IMG/VR virus record: IMGVR_UViG_2869947659_000001
Direction: 5' to 3' (one strand)
Length of the DNA: 22,011 nucleotides
From: a virus
Taxonomy: Duplodnaviria > Heunggongvirae > Uroviricota > Caudoviricetes
Below the pieces are notes generated by a model that was given only the letters and a program-made list of their open reading frames with translations, was not told where the DNA came from and ran no database searches. Shown here in pieces: positions 4,026-21,751 of this stretch (the first letter of the stretch is position 1; the number at the start of each line of letters is the position of its first letter). The position numbers and the translations under genes were made by a program.

Positions 4026-7000
4026 TCAGCTAATCGTGATGCCTGCAGTGGCTTTCTTCATCACAACAACCAGCAAATCGCTGATACTTGCTGTGGGATA
4101 CCAGCCATTTACCAGCCATGCCGATACAGAAAACTCCAGCGTCATGTGACCGTGACCGGCAGGCATATCAATAACACCCGTATATATCAGCGTATTATCC
4201 AGGGTCGTTCGGTTATAAATTTCAGCACCGTTTTTCTTCACTATCAGGCTGCATGACGAATAAATATTGTTATTCTTCCGCTCATGTTTAGCACCGCGAA
4301 ACGCCACCGCGGGAATAACAATTTGCCGATCAAACGGCTGATCGTCATAAACCCTGACGGTAATGGTCCCTGATGGCCACCTCTCCGGTGCCCGGGAGTC
4401 CCGTGGGAAAGGTTTGCCCACTGTTTTAACGAGATCGCCTTCAATCTGGTTCGCGGACAATTTTCCCAGAACCCGACAGTTCTTATTAATCGTGACGTTG
4501 TTGAGCGTCCCGGAGTTCGCGTTCACGTTACCGCTGATATCGGCATTTTTCGCCGTCAGCCGTCCGCCAGGTGTCAGGGAAAATGCCGGAGGATTACCGC
4601 CGCTGGTAATGGTCGGAGCCGTCAGGCGTTTCAGGAACACGTCGTTCATGAATATCTGATCGCCCTGACCAACAAACATCGGCTTTGTGTTGCCATTCGC
4701 AGGATTAATCATCGCAATCCTGTCTGCCGCCAGCAGCACCTGACTCTGCATTCCTGCTGGCGTATTCTCAATACCGGCACCGATACCCGCAATATAAAGG
4801 CGTCCGTCCTTCATCTGTTGCAGCTTCACAGCCCACATGCTGTTCAGGTTATTATTTGTATCAACCTGAACTTTCTGTATCTGCTGGATTGCAGCACTCT
4901 GATTTTCCAGTTTTTTATTGACGGTTTGCGTGATTTCATTGCTGACATTCGTAATGGACGTCCTGATTTCAGTCAGGTCCGGCGCAAGCTGACCGTTATC
5001 AATCTGCGTCCACAACTCCTTGCCGAGATGCGTTTTATTGATCAACCCTTTATAAAAACTCAGATAACCTTCCGCATCATCGCTCGCCCGACCGACGGCC
5101 TCCACAAATGCCGATTTGCCAACGGTGTTCACACTGCGAACGTAAAAATAATAATCATGGCCCGGCCTGATATTGATACTGGCGGCTATCCAGTACAGCG
5201 CCGTGCCAAGATAGCGGGCGCTGGTTTCAACCTGCCTGATATCCGCAATCCGCTTTTCCGAAAACCAGAACTCAAACTGCACCGTCGGGTCGTATACAGC
5301 CAGTTTCGGGACCGCCGTTATCTGAAAATACCCCGGTATCAGTTCAATAGTGACAGGCGCTGCCGGTGCCGCAATCCGGAACGATACCGACGCCGGATCG
5401 CCCTGCTGCCCCCGGGCATTTACCGCCCGGACTGTCAGACTGTAATTCCCCAGCGCCAGCTGCCTGAAGCGGTATGTGGTTTCCGTCGTCCTGGCTGTGC
5501 TGACCAGCCGCTCACTGCCGTCGTCCGCTGCCACGGTCAGGCGAAGCAGGAAGCTCACACCCTTCACCACCTTCGGCGTGTCCCATCGCGCCAGCACCTG
5601 ATATTCCCCGCTGTCTGCGGTGACTTCGGCGGTCAGATGCTGCACCGCTGGCGGCGTGACACCATTCACCGTGCCGCGCCGGTCACCGTCAAAGTGTGCC
5701 CCGTTATCCACGATGGCCTCTTTTTCCGGCACATGCTGCACGGCGGTGATGGCATACGTGCCGTCGTCGTTCTCACGGATACTCACGCAGCGGAACAGGC
5801 GCTGGCGCAGCGTCGGCAGCTTCAGCCCCCACACGCTGTATTCTGCAACGCCGTCAGGAACCCGGCTCACTTTCACCTTCACGCCGTCGGTGACGGACTG
5901 AACCTCCACGCTGACCGGATTGCCATTTCCGTCAACCAGGCTTATCAGCGTGGTACCGGAGGACGGCAGCGTGATTTCACGGTCGAGCGTCAGCGTCCGG
6001 GTCTGGCTGTTCACCGCCAGTACGCGACCACCGGTGCTGATACCGGCATAATCATCATCGCAGATTTCAATGACATCACCCGGTACATGGCGAAGCCCTT
6101 CTGCGCCGACGCTGAAGTCCACGGTCTGCGTTTCCAGCAGTTCCGTTTTAATCAGCCACAGCCCGGCGCGGTGCGCCTGTCCCCGGCTGGTACAGCCAAA
6201 GGCATCCATCTTCGTGACGTTACGACCGTAACGGAGAATGGCCTGCGTGTCCTCCACAAGCTCTGTCGCCGTCTCATGACCGTTGTCCGGATCAATCCAG
6301 TTCACCTCAACGACATTATGGCGGTCCTTCAGGGCGCTGAAGCTGTAGCGGAACGGCGCGCCATCATCCGGCATCACCACATTACTGCGGTTATAGGTCC
6401 ACACTTTATCCGACGGTCGGTCCTGCACGAACGTCAGCGTCTGCCCGTTCCATACCGGCATACAGCGCATCGCCGAGCAGAAATCACTGAGAACATCCCA
6501 CGCCTTACGCTGTGTGGTCAGGTAAGCGTTACAGGTGATGCGCGGCTCCGTGCCGCCAAATCCGTCCGGCACTGACTGGTCGCAGTACTGGCCGATGACA
6601 TACAGCGCCCATTTGTCCACATCTGCCGCACCAAGACGTTTCCCCATGCCGTAGCGCGGATGAGTGAGCATGTCCCACCGACACCAGGCCATGTTGTTGC
6701 TGTATGCTGGCTTAAGCGTTCCGTCCCAGATACCGCTGTATTGCCGCGTCTGCGGGTTATAGTTCGACGGCACCTGCAGAATGCGCCCGCGAAGATGATA
6801 ATTGCGACTCACCTGCTGGTTACCGAACTGCTCTGAATCCACCTGCACGCCGACCAGCGCCGTGTTCGGGTAGCACTGTTTCACATCGATGATTTCGGTG
6901 TACGACGACCAGAGCGTTTTGTTCTGCAGCTGGTCTGTGGTGCTGTCCGGTGTCATCCTGCGCATCCGGATATTAAACGGGCGCGGCGGCAGGTTACCCA

Positions 7001-7505
7001 CCACCACCGAGGCCAGATACTGCGAAGTGGTTTTGCCCTTAATGGTGATGTCTTTTTCCGTCACCCAGCCACCGTTACGCTGTATCTGAACCAGCAGGCG
7101 GACTTCCGACGGATTCCGGTCCCCCTTTGAGGTGTTTTCCACCAGTGCCTGCACACCGAAGGTCAGGCGCAGACGATCAATGTTTGCCGACGTGATGGTC
7201 CGGGTGATCGGCGTGTCGTATTTCACTTCCGTACCCAGCACAGTCTCTGAGCCGGAAGATTCAAACCCCTCCGGCGGTGTCTGCTCCTGCTCGCCGGCGC
7301 GGAACACCACCGTAACACCGGAAAAGTTTGTCTTCCCCTCGCTGTCCAGGACCGGCGTACCGTTCAGCAGCACGCTTTTTAATCCATCCACCGGACCGTC
7401 AACCGGCCCTTCGCTGATGGCATCAATCACACTCAGCAACTGCGTGGATTTCAGGTTGTCCTTCGCTTCGCGCGGGGTATGCCCCTTACTGCTGCCTTTA
7501 CCCAT
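4026..7505 (-). CDS. J: Tail tip / host specificity protein J (1159 aa)
   Basis: N-terminus [34 protein letters not shown]... and most of the length are collinear with recalled lambda J; the C-terminal receptor-binding part diverges. ATG at 7503-7505 with SD TGAGGA. Confidence 0.95.
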
Positions 7506-7527
7506 TCCTCACGCTCCATAAACGACA

Positions 7528-7547
7528 AAACCGCCCGCAGGCGGTTT
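7528..7547 (-). terminator. Terminator-like hairpin between I and J (possible attenuator or RNA-stability element)
   Basis: Stem AAACCGCC (7528-7535) / GGCGGTTT (7540-7547) with loop CGCA. On the minus strand the stem ends in UUU followed by GUCGUUUAU, immediately upstream of the J RBS. Confidence 0.35.
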
Positions 7548-7565
7548 CACATGAAACATTTTGCA

Positions 7566-8207
7566 TCAGCGACCAATCACCACAACCTGACCACCATCCC
7601 CTTCGTCTGCCGTGCTGATCTCCTGAGATACCACCCGCGACCCCACGCGCATTTCACCGTACAGAACAGGCAGAACATTGCCCTGGGCAACCATGTTATC
7701 CAGTGAGGAGAAACAGGTGTTCTGTTTGCCGTTATCCGTTGTCTGTGTACGGGGAGTTCTGGCTTTCGGTGCCAGCATCTGTGCAACACCGCCAAGCGTC
7801 ATACTGGCACCGAGAGAAAACAGCAGATTACTCGCCATAATTCCTACCCCCGGCATCCATATAGCAACCGCCATAACAGCTGCCCCCAGCACCGCCTGAA
7901 ACACACCGCCACTTTTAGCTCCCACCAGACGCGGTACTATGTGGATCACTGCACCATTTGCCAGCGGCTCATTAAGACGGGCAGACAATTCGGTTTCACC
8001 TGCATCACGCCCGGCAATGCGCACCTGATACCAGCCGTCACTCAGTTTCTGACGAAACGCCGGGAGCTGTGTGGCCAGTGCGCGGATGGCTTCAGCCCCC
8101 GTTTTCACACGAAGGTCGATGCGGCGGCCAAATCGTTGCAAATCCCCGTAAAGGCAGATGCGTGCCATTCCCGGTGACGCCAGAGGGAGTGTGTGCGTCG
8201 CTGCCAT
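7566..8207 (-). CDS. I: Tail assembly protein I (213 aa)
   Basis: MAATHTLPLASPGMARICLYGDLQRFGRRIDLRVKTGAEAIRALATQLPAFRQKLSDGWYQVRIAGRD... and the C-terminal ...KQNT.FSSLDNMVAQGNVLPVLYGEMRVGSRVVSQEISTADEGDGGQVVVIGR match recalled lambda gpI. Overlaps the 3' end of K as in lambda. Confidence 0.95.
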   Translation of the reverse strand: MAATHTLPLASPGMARICLYGDLQRFGRRIDLRVKTGAEAIRALATQLPAFRQKLSDGWYQVRIAGRDAGETELSARLNEPLANGAVIHIVPRLVGAKSGGVFQAVLGAAVMAVAIWMPGVGIMASNLLFSLGASMTLGGVAQMLAPKARTPRTQTTDNGKQNTCFSSLDNMVAQGNVLPVLYGEMRVGSRVVSQEISTADEGDGGQVVVIGR

Positions 8208-8848
8208 TTGTCGGTATACCTCTCTCGTTTACTCAGTTGTTCAGGAATATGGTGCAGCAGCTCACCGTCGCCGCAGTAAATGGCGGCATGATTCGGCACC
8301 GATGAACCAAAACAGCACAGCAGCACATCGCCCGGTTGTGCTGATGACAACGGCACCTGATACAGCCCTGTGGCCTCCAGATTATCCAGATAGAGATTCT
8401 GACCGTGACGCCACCAGTCATCCCCGCGATGAAAATCCGGCATCTCAATCCCCGCCAGATGATAAGCATCCCGGAACAGCGTGTAACAGTCCGTCACCCC
8501 GTGCTCAAAGCGCCGCCCGGTGAGATGCGGCACACAGCGGAACTTGTGAATCGCCCCCCGGCAGACCAGCCACCACGGCAAATCACTCTGCACCTGCAGC
8601 CGCCGGTCAGCCTCACTCAGCCAGGGCAGACCACCGGGATGACTGTGGACCAGTGCCACAATCTCACCCTGCATTTGTGCCCGCAGCCAGTCCTCCGGAG
8701 CCATCCGGAACCGTTCCTCCGGCTCACCGGAGATATTCTCGCTGGGAAGATACCTGTCTCCCTCCGGCGTTCTCACCACGAAGCCACACGACTCCGCTGG
8801 CGCACATCGCCGGGCGTGCGCCAGAATCGCTGATTCTGTCTGTGTCAT
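8105..8848 (-). CDS. K: Tail assembly protein K (MPN/JAMM plus NlpC/P60 domains), 247 aa from ATG 8846-8848
   Basis: MTQTESAILAHARRCAPAESCGFVV... matches recalled lambda gpK. JAMM-like HSHPGG motif and NlpC/P60-type Cys (VTDCYTLFRDAYHLAG) are present. The track ORF starts further upstream inside L and is not used. Confidence 0.9.
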   Translation of the reverse strand: MTQTESAILAHARRCAPAESCGFVVRTPEGDRYLPSENISGEPEERFRMAPEDWLRAQMQGEIVALVHSHPGGLPWLSEADRRLQVQSDLPWWLVCRGAIHKFRCVPHLTGRRFEHGVTDCYTLFRDAYHLAGIEMPDFHRGDDWWRHGQNLYLDNLEATGLYQVPLSSAQPGDVLLCCFGSSVPNHAAIYCGDGELLHHIPEQLSKRERYTDKWQRRTHSLWRHREWHASAFTGICNDLAAASTFV

Positions 8849-8852
8849 GGAT

Positions 8853-9551
8853 TTACTGAGAAAGTTTATTGATGGAAAGGAAACCGCCGAAATTACCGGT
8901 ATTGTTGCGCAACTCACACCCGCGCATACACTTGCTGCATTTGTCCTTCCGGATATCCGTCGTTGGTTTGTCGAACTCGTCAGCCACTGCCCTGCCCGTG
9001 TAACCACACTCATCAGAACGGTAGGTCCACATACAGGTATTCGCCAGCATGATACGCCCCGGGAAAACCGCGCCATCCGTCTCCGTTGGTGTGGCCAGCA
9101 CAAAAGAGGCACTGACCGCGCTCAGTTCGCTGCACTGCTCGATGCGCCAGCGGCTGATCACCTCCTGCTCCGGATCGGCGTCACTGTTTCCGTTGACGAA
9201 GTTCACCGCATCCAGAAAACGGGCGTAAACCTTACGCCGGACCACCGTTCCGCCGACCAGACTCTGCAGATCTTCCGCCATCCCGGCGACCATACCGTAC
9301 AGGTTAGAAACCGTCAGCGTGGGGCGCGTACTGGTGCCTTTGCCATTCAGTTCAAAACCACTCCCCTGAATGGGATACGGCTGATACTGTCGCCCCTGCC
9401 AGGTGACCGGCTCACCTTTTTCGTTCTGCTCATTACAGAAAAAATAACGTTCTCCACCGACCTCTGTCAGGTCGATTTCCCAGAGCACCACGCTGGCCGA
9501 CTGCTCCGCACGGGTGCATTCATTCAGTGTTTCCTGCCGGATATCCTGCAT
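8853..9551 (-). CDS. L: Minor tail protein L (232 aa)
   Basis: MQDIRQETLNECTRAEQSASVVLWEIDLTEVGGERYFFCNEQNEKGEPVTWQGRQYQPYPIQGSGFELNGKG... collinear with recalled lambda gpL, including the C-terminal Cys cluster CSKCMRGCELRNN. Confidence 0.95.
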   Translation of the reverse strand: MQDIRQETLNECTRAEQSASVVLWEIDLTEVGGERYFFCNEQNEKGEPVTWQGRQYQPYPIQGSGFELNGKGTSTRPTLTVSNLYGMVAGMAEDLQSLVGGTVVRRKVYARFLDAVNFVNGNSDADPEQEVISRWRIEQCSELSAVSASFVLATPTETDGAVFPGRIMLANTCMWTYRSDECGYTGRAVADEFDKPTTDIRKDKCSKCMRGCELRNNTGNFGGFLSINKLSQ

Positions 9552-9880
9552 CAGTTCACCACCTGTTCAAAATCGGCCGTTACAGTCACCCATAACGCCC
9601 CCACGCTTGCCGACCATTTACGACAAACCACCCTGATCGGTTTCCAGTCATAAGGTGGTGTCCACTGAAATGCGCGGACGCCACCGTGCCGTTCCAGAAA
9701 GGCTTTTAAAGGTGGGTGTTCACCTTTACGAACACGTATCGTCACGCTGTAAGTCGACAGCAGATTATTCAGTCCCGCCGGGCGACGCTGTTCATAACCA
9801 TCACCCAGCTTCACTGCCACCACTTTTGGCTCTGATACCACATTCATATCCGGGCGCACCTTCCAGCGAAACGTCTCCAT
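9551..9880 (-). CDS. M: Minor tail protein M (109 aa)
   Basis: METFRWKVRPDMNVVSEPKVVAVKLGDGYEQRRPAGLNNLL... matches recalled lambda gpM in length and sequence. Confidence 0.95.
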   Translation of the reverse strand: METFRWKVRPDMNVVSEPKVVAVKLGDGYEQRRPAGLNNLLSTYSVTIRVRKGEHPPLKAFLERHGGVRAFQWTPPYDWKPIRVVCRKWSASVGALWVTVTADFEQVVN

Positions 9881-11034
9881 TACCGGTATGCTCCACTTAA
9901 CCGGCCACCATCACGGGCCTGCTGTTGCATAAAGTCCGCGGCCGCTTTTTTCCCGAGGTCATAAACCACCTTCAGTGCTGCCGGACCTATCTGCCCGTTC
10001 GTGCCGTCGTTATTGATCCCGATGTTGTACTGCGGGGCAAACATCACCATGCCTGAACCACCAGTATCCGCCACAACCCCCAGCTTACCATCAGCACCGC
10101 GACGCAGTGGCAGAATGGCTTCAGGTCCCGCTTCCCCCATCACACCCGCGCCTTTTGCAAAAGCAAAAAACGTCGGACGGTTAACCACCGTGCCACTGTA
10201 GCGACTCAAATCAGCAGACTGGTAAACACCGCCATCAGCATTAGTCGTGAAGCCGAATAAAGAGCCGACGCCCTTTACCGCCTGCATCATGGCCATCTGT
10301 GCCATAATTCTGGCCATATCTGACAACAGGGAAGAGGTGAAGGATTTAAAATTCAGCTTACCGGTGGTACAGAATGTCGCCAGTGCATTACCGGCACTGC
10401 TGAATGCCACTGTAAACATCTGTTCTGCCGTTCCCACCGCATTATCCGCATCCGCCGTAAAATTCTGAAACGCCCGCATGGCACCGTTTTTCCAGTCGCC
10501 CTGCGCCACTTCCAGTTCCTGCCAGTAGCGTTTGTTTTCATTCAGTTGTCGCTTCAGGCTCCCCTTCAGCACCTCCTCAGCCCTCCGGTAGTCCTCCGTC
10601 CCGTAAGTGCCTTTCTGGCGACTGTCATTCTCAAGCTGTTGCAACTGTTGCCGGTATTCCTGCCGGATGCGCAACTGTGCCTGGTAGCGCTGCCGCTGCT
10701 TATCCCCCATACCTGCAGTGGCAATATCCAGATTGTGCTGCTCACGCAGTGCACGTTCTTTGTCTGCCAGCTGGCTGGTCAGCTGAACCGTTTTTTTTCT
10801 CAGGTCGTTAAGCGCTGTCTGTTTCTGCAGCTCCTGCTGTTTCACATCCAGCAGCGTCAGCGCCTGAATCAGCTCATTCTTACGGGCCAGCACACTCTTT
10901 TCATCTGCCGTCAGCTTTTTCCCGTCCAGGTCGCTGATGCGCTGCTGCAGGGCCAGAAGCTGTTTATGCGCTTCAGTCATCCTTTCAGTGGCAATGCCTG
11001 CTGACTGTCTGGCAGCAGCAATCTGCCCTTCCAC
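9880..11034 (-). pseudogene. H: Tape measure protein H, C-terminal fragment (384 codons), separated from its 5' part by IS600::IS629
   Basis: C-terminus ...NNDGTNGQIGPAALKVVYDLGKKAAADFMQQQARDGGRLSGAYR matches the recalled lambda H C-terminus. The frame is open up to the IS600 end at 11035; the track 'start' at 11034 is an internal GTG Val codon. Confidence 0.85.
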
Positions 11035-11241
11035 TGAGGTAGCCTGAGTTTAACGGACACTCCTTCCTGAAATAGAATGGCATCAGAAGGAGCTAATAAT
11101 GAGCAGAAAAAACCAACGTTACTCTAAAGAGTTCAAAGCCGAAGCTGTCAGAACGGTTCTTGAAAATCAACTTTCGATCAGTGAAGGTGAACCGCCCCGG
11201 GAATCCTGGAGACTAAACTCCCTGAGAAAGAGGTAAACAGG

Positions 11242-11559
11242 ATGACTAAAAATACTCGTTTTTCCCCCGAAGTCCGTCAGAGGGCGATTCGTATGGTTCT
11301 GGAAAGTCAGGGCGAATATGACTCACAGTGGGCGGCAATTTGTTCCATTGCCCCAAAGATTGGCTGTACACCGGAGACTCTGCGTGTCTGGGTACGCCAG
11401 CATGAGCGGGATACCGGAGGCGGTGATGGCGGGCTCACCACCGCTGAACGTCAGCGTCTGAAAGAGCTGGAACGTGAAAATCGTGAACTGCGCCGCAGTA
11501 ACGATATCCTTCGCCAGGCTTCCGCTTATTTTGCGAAGGCGGAGTTCGACCGCCAGTGA
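11242..11559 (+). CDS. IS629 OrfA (105 aa, HTH/leucine-zipper transposase N-terminal protein)
   Basis: [105 protein letters not shown] matches recalled IS629 OrfA. Confidence 0.9.
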
Positions 11560-12446
11560 TGCCACTGCTGGATAAGCTGCGTAAGCTGTACGGGGTCGGA
11601 CCGGTATGCAGTGAACTACATATTGCCCCGTCAACGTATTACCACTGTCAGCAACAGCGACATCATCCTGATAAACGCAGTGCCCGTGCGCAGCGCGATG
11701 ACTGGCTGAAGAAAGAGATACTGCGCGTATACGATGGGAATCATCAGGTATACGGTGTGCGTAAAGTCTGGCGTCAGTTGTTACGGGAAGGCATCAGAGT
11801 GGCCAGATGCACTGTGGCACGTCTCATGGCGGTTATGGGACTTGCCGGTGTTCTCCGGGGTAAAAAGGTCCGTACGACCATCAGCCGGAAAACCGTTGCC
11901 GCAGGCGACCGCGTAAACCGTCAGTTCGTGGCAGAACGACCTGACCAGCTGTGGGTGGCTGATTTTACTTACGTCAGCACATGGCAGGGCTTCGTCTATG
12001 TGGCGTTCATTATTGATGTGTTTGCCGGATACATCGTGGGGTGGCGGGTCTCATCGTCCATGGAAACGACATTCGTGCTGGATGCTCTGGAGCAGGCGTT
12101 ATGGGCCCGTCGACCGTCCGGCACGGTCCATCACAGTGATAAAGGTTCTCAGTATGTATCGCTGGCCTACACACAGCGGCTTAAGGAAGCCGGATTACTG
12201 GCATCAACAGGAAGTACAGGCGACTCGTATGACAACGCGATGGCGGAGAGCATCAATGGTCTTTACAAAGCGGAGGTAATACACCGTAAGAGCTGGAAAA
12301 ACCGTGCAGAAGTGGAACTGGCCACACTCACGTGGGTGGACTGGTATAATAATCGACGATTGCTGGAAAGGCAGGGCCACATCCCTCCGGCAGAAGCAGA
12401 AAAAGCTTATTATGCTTCCATCGGAAACGATGATCTGGCAGCCTGA
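11556..12446 (+). CDS. IS629 OrfB (296 aa, DDE transposase catalytic domain), in the -1 frame relative to OrfA
   Basis: DDE motif context ([25 protein letters not shown]). ATGA overlap with the orfA stop. Confidence 0.9.
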
Positions 12447-12659
12447 GTTCACAGATAAAACACTCTCCAGGAAACTCGGGGCGGTTCAAGGGTTCAAGGC
12501 GCTTCCCGATTATCCCTTCCTGAAGGCACTTTAGGACAATGGGTTACCGCCGCCAGAAAAGGGCTCGGTACTCCTGGTTCCCGCACGGTGGCTGAACTGG
12601 AATCTGAAATTCTGCAACTGCGTAAGGCGTTAAATGAAGCTCGCCTTGAGCGAGATATA

Positions 12660-12668
12660 TTAAAAAAA
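12660..12668 (+). promoter_or_regulatory. IS600 programmed -1 ribosomal frameshift window (TTA AAA AAA G; A7 run) linking orfA to orfB
   Basis: orfA codons TTA AAA AAA GCA. A -1 slip on the A-run enters the orfB frame (...KKSNSVFCTGVAEKYALIEQWRQQFPIEAMCQVF...). IS3-family elements use A6G/A7 windows for OrfAB fusion. Confidence 0.6.
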
Positions 12669-12748
12669 GCAACAGCGTATTTTGCACAGGAGTCGCTGAA
12701 AAATACGCGTTAATCGAACAATGGCGACAACAATTTCCCATTGAAGCG

Positions 12749-13567
12749 ATGTGTCAGGTATTTGGTGTATCCAGGAGCGGTTATTACAACTGGGTACAGC
12801 ATGAACCCTCAGACAGAAAACAAAGTGATGAGCGGCTAAAACTGGAGATTAAGGTGGCACATATCCGCACTCGCGAAACATATGGAACCCGGCGGCTCCA
12901 GACGGAGCTGGCAGAGAATGGCATCATCGTTGGTCGTGACCGACTGGCACGTCTTCGTAAGGAGCTAAGGCTACGCTGTAAGCAGAAACGCAAGTTCAGA
13001 GCGACTACGAACCCGAACCACAATCTGCCAGTTGCGCCAAATCTGCTGAACCAGACGTTCGCTCCTACAGCACCAAATCAGGTCTGGGTGGCGGACCTGA
13101 CGTATGTTGCCACACAGGAGGGATGGTTGTACCTCGCTGGCATCAAAGATGTTTATACGTGCGAAATTGTCGGCTACGCCATGGGAGAGCGCATGACAAA
13201 AGAGCTGACAGGTAAAGCCCTGTTTATGGCGCTCAGGAGCCAGCGCCCACCTGCCGGGCTAATCCACCACTCTGATCGAGGTTCACAGTACTGCGCATAC
13301 GATTACCGGGTCATACAGGAGCAGTCTGGTCTGAAAACATCAATGTCGCGTAAAGGTCACTGTTACGACAACGCTCCGATGGAAAGCTTCTGGGGAACGC
13401 TGAAAAATGAGAGCCTGAGCCACTATCGTTTTAATAACCGGGATGAAGCCATCTCAGTAATACGGGAATACATTGAGATTTTCTACAATCGTCAGCGTCG
13501 TCACTCTCGTCTGGGGAATATCTCCCCGGCAGCCTTCAGGGAAAAATATCATCAGATGGCTGCTTAA
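12749..13567 (+). CDS. IS600 OrfB (copy A), DDE transposase catalytic domain (272 aa from first Met; frame open upstream to the frameshift window)
   Basis: Identical protein to the copy at 16367-17185. DDE context WVADLTYV, HHSDRGSQY, YDNAPMES. Confidence 0.85.
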   Translation: MCQVFGVSRSGYYNWVQHEPSDRKQSDERLKLEIKVAHIRTRETYGTRRLQTELAENGIIVGRDRLARLRKELRLRCKQKRKFRATTNPNHNLPVAPNLLNQTFAPTAPNQVWVADLTYVATQEGWLYLAGIKDVYTCEIVGYAMGERMTKELTGKALFMALRSQRPPAGLIHHSDRGSQYCAYDYRVIQEQSGLKTSMSRKGHCYDNAPMESFWGTLKNESLSHYRFNNRDEAISVIREYIEIFYNRQRRHSRLGNISPAAFREKYHQMAA

Positions 13568-13610
13568 AAAAAGAACAAATGGTAGTGTCCGCTATTGCCA
13601 GTACACCTCA

Positions 13611-16320: not shown

Positions 16321-16366
16321 AAGTGAGGTGTACTGGCAATAGCGGACACTACCATTTGTTCTTTTT

Positions 16367-17185
16367 TTAAGCAGCCATCTGATGATATTTTTCCCTGAAG
16401 GCTGCCGGGGAGATATTCCCCAGACGAGAGTGACGACGCTGACGATTGTAGAAAATCTCAATGTATTCCCGTATTACTGAGATGGCTTCATCCCGGTTAT
16501 TAAAACGATAGTGGCTCAGGCTCTCATTTTTCAGCGTTCCCCAGAAGCTTTCCATCGGAGCGTTGTCGTAACAGTGACCTTTACGCGACATTGATGTTTT
16601 CAGACCAGACTGCTCCTGTATGACCCGGTAATCGTATGCGCAGTACTGTGAACCTCGATCAGAGTGGTGGATTAGCCCGGCAGGTGGGCGCTGGCTCCTG
16701 AGCGCCATAAACAGGGCTTTACCTGTCAGCTCTTTTGTCATGCGCTCTCCCATGGCGTAGCCGACAATTTCGCACGTATAAACATCTTTGATGCCAGCGA
16801 GGTACAACCATCCCTCCTGTGTGGCAACATACGTCAGGTCCGCCACCCAGACCTGATTTGGTGCTGTAGGAGCGAACGTCTGGTTCAGCAGATTTGGCGC
16901 AACTGGCAGATTGTGGTTCGGGTTCGTAGTCGCTCTGAACTTGCGTTTCTGCTTACAGCGTAGCCTTAGCTCCTTACGAAGACGTGCCAGTCGGTCACGA
17001 CCAACGATGATGCCATTCTCTGCCAGCTCCGTCTGGAGCCGCCGGGTTCCATATGTTTCGCGAGTGCGGATATGTGCCACCTTAATCTCCAGTTTTAGCC
17101 GCTCATCACTTTGTTTTCTGTCTGAGGGTTCATGCTGTACCCAGTTGTAATAACCGCTCCTGGATACACCAAATACCTGACACAT
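16367..17185 (-). CDS. IS600 OrfB (copy B), DDE transposase catalytic domain (272 aa)
   Basis: Identical to the copy A OrfB. In this copy the orfB frame is +1, not -1, relative to orfA. Confidence 0.85.
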   Translation of the reverse strand: MCQVFGVSRSGYYNWVQHEPSDRKQSDERLKLEIKVAHIRTRETYGTRRLQTELAENGIIVGRDRLARLRKELRLRCKQKRKFRATTNPNHNLPVAPNLLNQTFAPTAPNQVWVADLTYVATQEGWLYLAGIKDVYTCEIVGYAMGERMTKELTGKALFMALRSQRPPAGLIHHSDRGSQYCAYDYRVIQEQSGLKTSMSRKGHCYDNAPMESFWGTLKNESLSHYRFNNRDEAISVIREYIEIFYNRQRRHSRLGNISPAAFREKYHQMAA

Positions 17186-17234
17186 CGCTTCAATGGGAAA
17201 TTGTTGTCGCCATTGTTCGATTAACGCGTATTTT

Positions 17235-17522
17235 TCAGCGACTCCTGTGCAAAATACGCTGTTGCTTTTTTAATATATCTCGCTCAAGGCGAGCTTCATT
17301 TAACGCCTTACGCAGTTGCAGAATTTCAGATTCCAGTTCAGCCACCGTGCGGGAACCAGGAGTACCGAGCCCTTTTCTGGCGGCGGTAACCCATTGTCCT
17401 AAAGTGCCTTCAGGAAGGGATAATCGGGAAGCGCCTTCACTGATCGAAAGTTGATTTTCAAGAACCGTTCTGACAGCTTCGGCTTTGAACTCTTTAGAGT
17501 AACGTTGGTTTTTTCTGCTCAT
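17235..17522 (-). CDS. IS600 OrfA variant (copy B), 95 aa with altered C-terminus
   Basis: MSRKNQRYSKEFKAEAVRTVLENQLSISEGASRLSLPEGTLGQWV...LERDILKKQQRILHRSR. After the A-run it diverges from the copy A reading (…KKATAYFAQESLKNTR) because the run is A6 rather than A7. Confidence 0.8.
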   Translation of the reverse strand: MSRKNQRYSKEFKAEAVRTVLENQLSISEGASRLSLPEGTLGQWVTAARKGLGTPGSRTVAELESEILQLRKALNEARLERDILKKQQRILHRSR

Positions 17523-17586
17523 TATTAGCTCCTTCTGATGCCATTCTATTTCAGGAAGGAGTGTCCGTTAAACTCAGGCTACCTCA

Positions 17587-18134
17587 AAGGTCAGTGTGGT
17601 GGTTGCTCCCGCTTTGACACTGACAGATGCCGGTGCCACCGTCAGTCCGGTAACACCCACGGTTTCAGCGCCCTCCTCTGCCAGATACGGACGCCCCACA
17701 CCGCTGATTTTTACAGTACGGGTCATCACCTCTTTTGAGGTAATGGTTTTACCCAGTGAACTCAGCCAGCCACGGAAAACATCAACCGTACCGTTGGGGT
17801 ATTTGATACGAAACGCGCAGACTTCACCGGAATCGAACAACTGAACCAGTTTTTTCTGCCCGCTGTCACCCGGACGCCAGGCCAGCGTCGCCAAAGTATC
17901 ACCGACGGATTTCTGCCCCTGGGTTGTCGTTTTCCAGTCTGCATCTTCATCATCGAGATAAGTGTCATCTTCTGCATCAGCGGTCATTTCGCCAAGTTGC
18001 AGATCCTTCACCATCGCAAGACGCAGCCAGTCAGTGTCCGACAAAGGGTTCGCAAACGCATCGCCCTTGCCGGTGTACATCCAGAACGTCGTTCCCGCAC
18101 CTTTCGTCTTTGCCAGTGGATTTGGTGTGGTCAT
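17587..18134 (-). pseudogene. V: Major tail protein V, N-terminal fragment
   Basis: ATG 18132-18134 with [46 protein letters not shown]... matches the recalled lambda gpV N-terminus. The frame runs 12 nt into IS600 to TGA 17574-17576. The track ORF starts at an upstream GTG. Confidence 0.85.
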
Positions 18135-19361: not shown

Positions 19362-19781
19362 ATGGAACAGAAAGCATTATCTGCAGAACCCCGCAGATCA
19401 TTTTCAAATGAGTTTAAACTTCAAATGGTTAAACTGGCTTCACAACCAGGAGCCTCTGTTGCCCGTATTGCCCGGGAACACGATATCAATGATAACCTGC
19501 TGTTCAAATGGCTCAGGCTCTGGCAGAACGAAGGGCGCATATCGCGGCGTCTTCCGGTAACAACCTCTTCTGACACTGGCGTTGAATTATTACCTGTGGA
19601 GATAACGCCGGATGAGCCGAAAGAACCTGTGGCTGCTCTTACTCCGTCTTTATCTACTCAGACTACAGTTAGTGCCAGCTCCTGCAAGGTGGAGTTCCGT
19701 CACGGTAACATGACGCTGGAAAATCCTTCACCAGAGCTGCTCACAGTGTTGATCCGTGAACTGACCGGGAGGGGACGATGA
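19362..19781 (+). CDS. IS66-family Orf1 (TnpA-like accessory protein, 139 aa)
   Basis: First of three co-oriented ORFs inside the inverted repeats. N-terminal HTH-like region (FSNEFKLQMVKLASQPGASVARIAREHDINDNLLFKWL). Confidence 0.85.
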   Translation: MEQKALSAEPRRSFSNEFKLQMVKLASQPGASVARIAREHDINDNLLFKWLRLWQNEGRISRRLPVTTSSDTGVELLPVEITPDEPKEPVAALTPSLSTQTTVSASSCKVEFRHGNMTLENPSPELLTVLIRELTGRGR

Positions 19782-20128
19782 TCTCACTCCCGTCAGGCAC
19801 CCGCATCTGGCTCGTTGCTGGGATAACCGATATGCGTAAGTCTTTCAACGGGCTGGGTGAACAGGTACAGCATGTGCTGAATGATAATCCCTTCTCCGGT
19901 CACCTGTTCATCTTCCGTGGCCGACGGGGTGACATGATTAAAATCCTGTGGGCTGATGCTGATGGTCTGTGCCTGTTCACCAGACGCCTGGAGGAAGGCC
20001 AGTTTATCTGGCCTGCTGTGCGTGACGGCAAGGTATCCATTACCCGCTCGCAACTGGCAATGCACCTCGATAAGCTGGACTGGCGTCAGCCAAAAACATC
20101 CCGCCTTAATGCACTGACAATGTTGTAA
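19778..20128 (+). CDS. IS66-family Orf2 (TnpB-like, 116 aa)
   Basis: ATGA overlap with orf1. Conserved IS66 Orf2 pattern (IWLVAGITDMRKSFNGL...HLFIFRGRRGDMIKILWADADGLCLF). Confidence 0.85.
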   Translation: MISLPSGTRIWLVAGITDMRKSFNGLGEQVQHVLNDNPFSGHLFIFRGRRGDMIKILWADADGLCLFTRRLEEGQFIWPAVRDGKVSITRSQLAMHLDKLDWRQPKTSRLNALTML

Positions 20129-20158
20129 AAATGTCATGGCCGGATTATAAAAACGGCC

Positions 20159-21751
20159 ATGAATCAAAAATACCTCATTCGCATTGCAGAACTGGAATGC
20201 CAGCTCCGTCAGAAAGACCAGCAACTGAGTCTGGTTGAAGAGACGGAGGCCTTCCTGCGCTCTGCACTGGCCCGCGCCGAAGAAAAGATCGAAGAAGATG
20301 AACGGGAAATAGAACATCTGCGGGCTCAGATAGAAAAACTGCGCCGGATGCTGTTCGGTACCCGTTCTGAAAAACTGCGTCGTGAAGTTGAACAGGCTGA
20401 GGCCCTGCTGAAACAACGCGAACAGGACAGTGATCGTTACAGTGGGCGGGAAGACGATCCGCAGGTTCCCCGCCAGTTGCGACAGTCTCGTCATCGTCGC
20501 CCGTTACCGGAGCATCTGCCCCGCGAAATAAATCGCCTGGAGCCAGAAGAAAGCTGTTGCCCGGAGTGTGGCGGTGAGCTGGATTATCTGGGGGAAGTCA
20601 GCGCAGAACAACTGGAACTGGTGAGCAGCGCTCTGAAAGTGATCCGCACAGAACGGGTAAAAAAAGCCTGTACAAAATGTGACTGCATCGTTGAAGCACC
20701 GGCACTATCCCGTCCGATAGAGCGTGGTATCGCGGGCCCGGGGTTACTTGCCCGCGTGTTAACGGGAAAATACTGCGAACACCTGCCACTGTATCGTCAG
20801 AGTGAAATTTTTGCCCGTCAGGGTGTCGAACTGAGCCGTGCATTACTCTCCAACTGGGTTGACGCGTGCTGCCAGTTAATGACGCCGCTGAATGATGCTC
20901 TGTACCGTTATGTAATGAACAGCCGCAAAGTTCACACTGATGACACACCAGTAAAAGTGCTGGCACCGGGCAGGAAGAAGGCGAAAACAGGATATATCTG
21001 GACGTATGTCCGGGATGACAGGAATGCCGGTTCGCCAGAGCCTCCGGCGGTCTGGTTCGCCTACTCACCGGACCATCAGGGTAAACATCCGGAGCAGCAC
21101 CTTAGTCCCTTCCGGGGTATCCTGCAGGCAGATGCGTTTAATGGTTACGATCGGCTGTTCAGTGCCGAACGAGAAGGCGGCGCGTTGACGGAAGCAGGAT
21201 GCTGGGCTCATGCGCGGCGCAAAGTCCACGATGTATATATCAGTACCAAAAGCGCGACAGCGGAAGAAGCCCTGAAACTAATCGGTGAGCTGTACGCCAT
21301 CGAGCACGAAATACGCGGGTTGCCGGTGTCTGAACGCCTGGCGGTCAGGCAAATGCAGAGTAAACCGCTACTGACTTCCCTGTATAAGCTGATGCAGGAG
21401 AAAGAACACACGTTATCGAAAAAATGCCGTCTGAGAGATGCGTTCCGGTATATCAGGAAGCACTGGGTTGCGTTGTGCAACTTCAGTGATGATGGTCTGG
21501 CTGAGGCGGATAATAATGCCGCGGAAAGAGCGCTTCGTGCAGTCTGTCTCGGAAAGAAAAACTTTATGTTCTTCGGCAGCGATCACGGTGGAGAGCGTGG
21601 TGCGCTACTGTACGGGCTGATCGGCACCTGCCGACTGAACGGTATCGATCCGGAAGCGTATCTGCGCTATATCCTGAGCGTACTGCCGGAATGGCCTTCC
21701 AACCGTGTTGACGAACTCCTGCTATGGAACGTAGCACTCACCAATAAATAA
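20159..21751 (+). CDS. IS66-family transposase Orf3 (TnpC, 530 aa)
   Basis: N-terminal coiled-coil / leucine-zipper region, Cys cluster CPECGGEL...CTKCDC (zinc-finger-like) and C-terminal DDE-type region. Stop TAA 21749-21751 lies just inside the right terminal repeat. Confidence 0.9.
   Translation: MNQKYLIRIAELECQLRQKDQQLSLVEETEAFLRSALARAEEKIEEDEREIEHLRAQIEKLRRMLFGTRSEKLRREVEQAEALLKQREQDSDRYSGREDDPQVPRQLRQSRHRRPLPEHLPREINRLEPEESCCPECGGELDYLGEVSAEQLELVSSALKVIRTERVKKACTKCDCIVEAPALSRPIERGIAGPGLLARVLTGKYCEHLPLYRQSEIFARQGVELSRALLSNWVDACCQLMTPLNDALYRYVMNSRKVHTDDTPVKVLAPGRKKAKTGYIWTYVRDDRNAGSPEPPAVWFAYSPDHQGKHPEQHLSPFRGILQADAFNGYDRLFSAEREGGALTEAGCWAHARRKVHDVYISTKSATAEEALKLIGELYAIEHEIRGLPVSERLAVRQMQSKPLLTSLYKLMQEKEHTLSKKCRLRDAFRYIRKHWVALCNFSDDGLAEADNNAAERALRAVCLGKKNFMFFGSDHGGERGALLYGLIGTCRLNGIDPEAYLRYILSVLPEWPSNRVDELLLWNVALTNK

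Follow-up and report, generated by a model that had tools for sequence, protein, structure and literature searches.

IS600 belongs to the IS3 group of the IS3 family, and -1 frameshifting, stimulated by a stem-loop, is described for it as proven (Sharma et al. 2014, PMC4066793). The supplement to that paper lists it in cluster A_AAA_AAA_1, with the shift at codon 86, an OrfA of 100 aa and an OrfAB of 385 aa, and the same authors describe runs of seven A (A7) as prone to indels. In the normal element, ribosomes translating orfA slip by -1 on A_AAA_AAA, assisted by a stem-loop 6 nt downstream, to produce the 385-aa OrfAB, and those that do not slip produce the 100-aa OrfA. An E. coli copy annotated by NCBI as 'IS3-like element IS600 family transposase, programmed frameshift' measures 1264 bp and carries the A7 run in the sequence TTAAAAAAAG. 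This copy and PMC4066793 agree with the original prediction, which had given the reference IS600 as a 1264-bp element with a 100-aa OrfA; a reference with a run of only six A, which would have refuted that prediction, is not the case. Shigella chromosomes contain 20-54 IS600 copies each and hundreds of IS elements, and show widespread pseudogenisation (PMC7373316).

The window analysed here (the whole 22,011-nt stretch of IMG/VR record IMGVR_UViG_2869947659_000001, assigned to the Caudoviricetes) contains two IS600 copies, termed A and B, of which copy B has six A in place of seven (A6). The preferred reading, to which a probability of about 0.75 is given, is that copy B is an authentic IS600 copy that has lost one A from its slippery run (A7 to A6), with slippage during replication of this mutation-prone homopolymer as the most likely cause.

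Two IS600 copies in a decayed lambdoid prophage

Over 12.4 kb the window is 100% identical to GenBank CP026766.1. It covers that half of a decayed lambdoid prophage in which the tail genes lie (Z, U, V, G/T, H, M, L, K, I, J, lom, a tail fibre gene and a gene encoding a NEL domain), and the prophage is of the type that carries ipaH in Shigella. A 374-aa ORF on the left border of the window (positions 1-1125) matches the ipaH-type NEL-domain gene of related loci. A Shigella context was assigned because of this gene, the IS load and the matching Shigella assemblies. Decay of the prophage is heavy, with the ipaH-type ORF at one end and, at the other, an IS66-family element (19362-21751, with ORFs of 139, 116 and 530 aa) in place of the head genes. 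A run of nine A in the gap that separates the tail-fibre gene from the following ORF (about 1800-1808) is a run of eight in four related prophages (L014, L015, L017 and L018). The two IS600 copies are inverted relative to each other and spaced 2.7 kb apart. An inversion between them was ruled out, because the tail genes all have one orientation and the target-site duplication of copy B is still matched.

Copy A lies on the plus strand within the tape-measure gene and is interrupted by a nested element. Its left part (11035-11187) consists of the left inverted repeat and the first 29 or so codons of orfA. This is followed by an apparently intact IS629-type element of 1309 bp (11188-12496, plus strand), which splits orfA at about codon 30 and is flanked by AGG duplications at 11185-11187 and 12497-12499. 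The right part (12500-13610, plus strand) carries the A7 run at 12662-12668 and orfB at 12749-13567; the plus strand from 12650 to 12680 reads GCGAGATATATT-AAAAAAA-GCAACAGCG. When rejoined without IS629 (11188-12496) and the AGG duplication, copy A measures 1264 bp. The IS629-type element has ORFs of 105 and 296 aa, for which the NCBI call is a 401-aa frameshift-fusion transposase (L022, 13689-14893). Its right end holds the near-repeat GGTTCAAGGGTTCA, which superficially resembles an 8-nt tandem duplication; a description as a 1301-bp element with such a duplication was dropped, since the sequence reads better as an ordinary 1309-bp element flanked by AGG duplications. Copy A itself has no target-site duplication (flanks CAC and GAC, 11034/13611). 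The tape-measure gene beside it is short of exactly 123 bp, or 41 codons, when compared with related prophages (L014, 8724-8846), and the deletion of this adjoining segment accounts for the missing duplication. The 123-bp loss could be an IS-mediated adjacent deletion or the product of recombination between two neighbouring IS600 copies.

Copy B is a complete element of 1263 bp on the minus strand (16324-17586), inserted within the lambdoid major tail gene V. Both copies start with TGAGGTAGCCTGAG and end with ...CAGTACACCTCA, the ends of copy B reading TGAGGTAGCC...CACCTCA, and their 5'-TG...CA-3' termini are those of the annotated E. coli IS600. Nucleotide identity of copy B to that annotated copy (L001) is 99.6% over 1263 bp, above the 95% to a reference that is expected of an isoform. 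The insertion is bounded by a 3-bp target-site duplication, as is characteristic of the IS3 family, with CTT at 17587-17589 (the left copy on the element strand) and again at 16321-16323 (the right copy), so that the flanks read ...ACCTT before the element and CTTTAC after it; in related prophages CTT is present once at this site. The coding content is likewise that of an IS3-family element. orfA (17235-17522, minus strand) encodes a 95-aa variant with a HTH_Tnp_1 domain (Pfam PF01527), and orfB (16367-17185, minus strand) encodes 272 aa from its first ATG, with HTH_21 and an rve DDE integrase among four Pfam domains (PF13276, PF00665, PF13683 and PF13333). A stem-loop, presumed to be the stimulator of -1 frameshifting, is predicted 3' of the slippery run (17223-17263, minus strand), its 9-bp core stem beginning 6 nt past the run. 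The predicted RNA fold has an energy of -24 kcal/mol and a z-score of about -2.4 to -2.6, the hairpin is identical in copies A and B, and as modelled its spacing and type are those that stimulate -1 frameshifting in the IS3 family. A second, non-coding run of A lies directly after the orfB stop and is a full A7 in both copies (16362-16368 in copy B and 13566-13572 in copy A).

Consequences of the missing base for the reading frames

When copies A and B were aligned, with the IS629 insert and the AGG duplication removed, the sole difference between them was one A. The plus strand from 17255 to 17285 reads TACGCTGTTGC-TTTTTT-AATATATCTCGCTC, which places the six T at 17266-17271; on the minus strand this is the shortened slippery sequence, now A_AAA_AAG in the orfA frame. 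Direct reading of both runs thus confirmed the claim that copy B has A6 and copy A has A7. Under random substitution, the chance that a single difference in 1.26 kb falls in the 7-nt slippery run is 0.6%; the run is the expected place for an indel, because homopolymer runs are indel hotspots.

With A7, frame 0 encodes the 100-aa OrfA (...ILKKATAYFAQESLKNTR), and an OrfAB of 385 aa results from slipping by -1 on A_AAA_AAA. With A6, frame 0 ends at 95 aa (...ILKKQQRILHRSR) with a new tail of nine residues, QQRILHRSR. The -1 frame of the A6 copy ends after 14 further codons and yields the normal 100-aa OrfA again, since the slip offsets the missing base. In this copy orfB lies in the +1 frame with a TAA two codons upstream, and the fusion would be 384 aa if orfB were reached. 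Translation therefore agrees with the frames originally given for both run lengths, namely the 95-aa OrfA and the displacement of orfB to +1. The combination of a -1-frame orfB, A_AAA_AAA and a downstream hairpin, leading to a 385-aa OrfAB, was found at the frameshift site of copy A and not in copy B. Copy B is IS600 by descent (>99.9% identity) without the functional hallmark of the element.

The expected outcome for the A6 copy is as follows. With the sequence past the run shifted by one base, normal decoding would give the 95-aa OrfA variant. The motif now in phase, A_AAA_AAG, promotes -1 slippage very efficiently in E. coli, and a slip on it would be expected only to restore the native 100-aa OrfA. 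With orfB in the +1 frame behind a TAA, OrfAB would be essentially absent. On this reading of the frames, copy B is predicted to have lost expression of OrfAB and to be non-autonomous because that protein is essentially not made. The earlier view that neither copy in the window could make OrfAB alone by the normal route holds, given the frames of copy B and the IS629 in orfA of copy A. Copy B is nevertheless probably still mobilisable in trans if A7 copies at other genomic sites supply OrfAB, because its inverted repeats and CTT duplication, and orfB too, are intact. One-base expansion of the run or gene conversion might return it to activity.

Autonomy could also have been kept through another form of recoding, which might be slippage of RNA polymerase (A6 to A7 restoring the mRNA, or A6 to A5 or A8 fusing the frames) or a +1/-2 ribosomal shift as in the IS1447 group. 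The position of orfB is compatible with this, in that a +1 shift on AAA_AAG would generate a 384-aa OrfAB lacking one Lys, and IS1447 demonstrates that +1 transcriptional slippage is usable by the IS3 family. In IS1447, however, no slippage product was detectable with six A or fewer, seven being needed. Furthermore, the A-site codon AAG is not slow, so nothing stimulates a +1 shift. The distribution of A6 copies, described below, also bears on this alternative.

Authenticity, distribution and instability of the A6 run

A short homopolymer in a single assembly may be an error, in which case the true sequence at 17266-17271 would be T7, a base would have been dropped in the homopolymer consensus, and copy B would be a normal active IS600. 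CP026766.1 is the only full assembly of the copy B locus and is 100% identical to the window. A search with the truncated V protein taken from its natural ATG recovered the V::IS600 junction from two sources alone, CP026766.1 and a short-read contig that breaks off at the IS end; the same protein taken as the longest ORF had no match on record, and a 30-mer across the junction was absent from IMG/VR and from all retrieved related loci. A sister assembly whose accession belongs to the same series as CP026766.1 (CP026823.1, L020) shows eight deletions of one base each, all in runs of C or G, across the 6 kb compared with window positions 5130-11034. Homopolymer errors may also affect some recent plasmid assemblies, in which A6 matches are clustered with several per record, and one pair of loci that differ in the length of the slippery run (L002 and L030) also differ at an unrelated homopolymer in the flank. 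Against an error at copy B, copy A was called as A7 in the same sequence context only 4 kb away, and no homopolymer under-calls were found elsewhere in the window over about 14 kb compared with its closest relatives, the long genes being intact. The same A6 allele is also found in S. boydii Sb227 and other assemblies, on elements of identical sequence, and is repeated at one orthologous locus in two of them. An assembly error at the copy B locus is therefore considered unlikely. The deletions in CP026823.1 break several tail genes, a pattern that resembles homopolymer under-calling rather than biology.

The A6 allele exists in nature and is already in public records. The exact 95-aa OrfA of copy B is on record on 122 contigs and has been named 'IS600 ORF1 [Shigella boydii Sb227]' (CP000036). 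At least six genes for it are present in Sb227 (four accessions and loci at 2.64 and 4.2 Mb), a strain with 20 IS600 copies (Hawkey et al. 2020, S1 Table). Full A6 copies of 1263 bp, identical or nearly so to copy B, were found at different chromosomal sites with 3-bp duplications of their own (TTC, CGC, GAC and ATA, compared with CTT here), and one orthologous IS600 copy has A6 in both L005 and L009, which are separate assemblies. The literature searches made for this analysis found no paper discussing the A6 allele of IS600. The exact IS600 frameshift window was also encountered on a low-coverage contig of Streptomyces sp. UG1 (L179, NZ_JBNGGG010000135.1, 1380 bp, coverage 1.3), where it almost certainly represents contamination from E. 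coli or Shigella DNA.

The frequency of A6 was estimated in several collections. Across 5,426 complete E. coli genomes, the exact A6 46-mer was found at 19 places, compared with 5,590 places for the 46-mer just upstream of the run, a neighbouring sequence that serves as the denominator in place of the A7 46-mer itself. In S. flexneri SFBU1023 and 'E. coli' ECMA0423, species-representative genomes that are rich in IS600, all 42 matches were A7. A scan of IMG/VR for runs of any length returned 139 matches, comprising 126 with A7, ten with A6, two with A8 and one with A4GA2. The allele is thus unevenly distributed: Sb227 has it in at least 6 of its 20 copies, and SFBU1023 and ECMA0423 combined have it in 0 of 42 matches (Fisher p = 0.0007 for a table of 6/20 against 0/41). 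Because of this unevenness, independent mutation alone is insufficient, and the excess in Sb227 suggests additional spread, whether through gene conversion or through mobilisation in trans.

These data bear in both directions on an A6 element that is still autonomous through other recoding. The presence of A6 copies at many different sites, each with its own target duplication, and their share of about 30% or more of the IS600 copies in Sb227 are what active elements could produce. On the other hand, A6 is rare overall, at 19 of about 5590 places in E. coli and none of 42 in the two IS600-rich genomes, and is no commoner than contraction of a neutral A7 run; polymorphism for A6 and A7 at orthologous sites indicates that the change can arise after insertion. 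Autonomy by such a route is considered highly improbable.

Instability of the run was evident from comparisons among copies. At least five IS600 haplotypes include copies with A6. Two orthologous sites are split between A6 and A7, one between Sb227 and CP026807.1 and the other between GCA_000815645.1 and CP026807.1, with A7 in CP026807.1 at both. These two cases of tract-length polymorphism between close relatives at the same locus are the pairs L006 (A6) and L029 (A7), and L002 (A6) and L030 (A7), with flanks aligned over 1659 bp. At both polymorphic sites the CP026807.1 copies have a private G-to-A change at IS position 1241, where the A6 counterparts in the other strains have G. Such linked differences in the run and at 1241, seen at two loci, suggest gene conversion, or concerted evolution, among IS600 copies. 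Private SNP counts were used as a proxy for age in a small sample of four A6 copies and 54 A7 copies.

A set of 93 distinct IMG/VR copies, taken without selection for run length, provided an internal control in the form of the 3' non-coding A7 run. The slippery run was A6 in 6/93 and A8 in 1/93, and the non-coding run was contracted in 9/93, with contraction to A6 in several IMG/VR haplotypes. As the frequency at the slippery run is about that of the non-coding run, A6 can be ascribed to ordinary homopolymer instability. The simplest reading is that A6 is a recurrent, essentially neutral homopolymer contraction, and its origin is accordingly taken to be mutational. The A8 run was seen in two IS600 copies, L113 (6435-6475) and L138 (about 9269). 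By its frames, A8 would fuse orfA and orfB and so give constitutive OrfAB. The orthologue of L138, L093, has A7; the pair differs by four indels in 2.7 kb, and a sequencing error is possible.

A functional role for the length change was also weighed. The run could be a selected on/off switch, or A6 copies could be putative OrfA-only regulators, which would produce OrfA by a -1 slip along with the 95-aa variant but no transposase and thereby damp IS600 in IS-laden Shigella genomes, in either case revertible by one-base expansion or gene conversion. Several observations are compatible with this proposal, namely the unlike run lengths at orthologous sites between strains, the linked differences at two sites that suggest gene conversion between copies, the regeneration of native OrfA by a -1 slip in A6, and the enrichment of A6 in the Sb227 lineage. 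The frequency of A6 contraction is, however, that of the non-coding A7 run in the same element, which makes selection needless. Tracts of 6-7 bases also switch far more slowly than classical contingency loci. The same-order contraction of the neutral A7 run argues against a special status for the slippery run as a phase-variable switch, and a selected role is considered quite unlikely. In its widest form, the proposal would be that A6 and A7 make up a reversible switch, in which A6 copies, silent and making only OrfA, are maintained and propagated in certain Shigella lineages (in Sb227 they are at least 30% of the copies) through gene conversion or trans mobilisation and are re-armed by one-base expansion, modulating bursts of transposition; this too is considered quite unlikely.

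Significance and comparison with related IS3-family elements

Taken as an IS600 with a contracted run, copy B is most probably non-autonomous and an ordinary representative of a known mobile element. It carries little weight in itself, being one more decayed copy of a well-known IS in an IS-ridden Shigella prophage, and A6 is the most predictable kind of inactivating mutation in a known IS. Its wider relevance concerns annotation and the stability of the recoding site. The NCBI gene call on a 1156-nt A6 copy (L022, 8613-9768), which is the same DNA as copy B, is a 385-aa transposase, as if produced by a programmed frameshift, and an A6 copy with the same 1156-nt span (L034, 1270-2425) has a protein accession as 'IS3-like element IS600 family transposase'. 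Such calls hide the defect, and counts of 'intact' IS600 may be inflated as a result. The slippery run that is needed for IS600 expression is also the most fragile site of the element, about 5-7% of copies having lost or gained a base there. If the unevenness of A6 reflects gene conversion or trans mobilisation, it would bear on what sustains or damps the expansion of IS elements in Shigella.

Compared with canonical IS600, copy B has 99.6-100% nucleotide identity over its full length and shares the inverted repeats, the 3-bp duplication, orfA with its HTH, orfB with its DDE (rve) domain and the stem-loop. It differs in having A6 in place of A7, 1263 bp in place of 1264 bp, an OrfA of 95 aa in place of 100 aa, and orfB in the +1 rather than the -1 frame. 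Other defective IS copies in Shigella provide a second comparison; the window itself also shows IS629 nested in copy A, a deletion next to an IS and decay of the prophage. The defect of copy B is distinct in that it lies exactly in the recoding signal and that a single-base change could in principle reverse it.

With IS911, IS3 and IS150, the A6 copy shares A_AAA_AAG followed by a hairpin, the classical efficient signal of the IS3 family, which the lost base has brought into phase (PMC4066793). In those elements the signal leads to transposase, whereas in A6 IS600 the -1 frame past A_AAA_AAG is the native orfA tail and not orfB, so that a slip would give OrfA. The IS1447 subgroup, which uses +1 transcriptional slippage, resembles the A6 copy in having orfB in the +1 frame relative to orfA and an A-run at the junction. 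In that subgroup the run is conserved at 7-9 A and six A gave no product, whereas in IS600 only a minority of copies have orfB in +1, which is not the conserved state. An element of IS1447 type would be expected to have a conserved run of at least seven A at the junction with orfB in +1; copy B has A6, and the great majority of its relatives have A7 and a -1-frame orfB.
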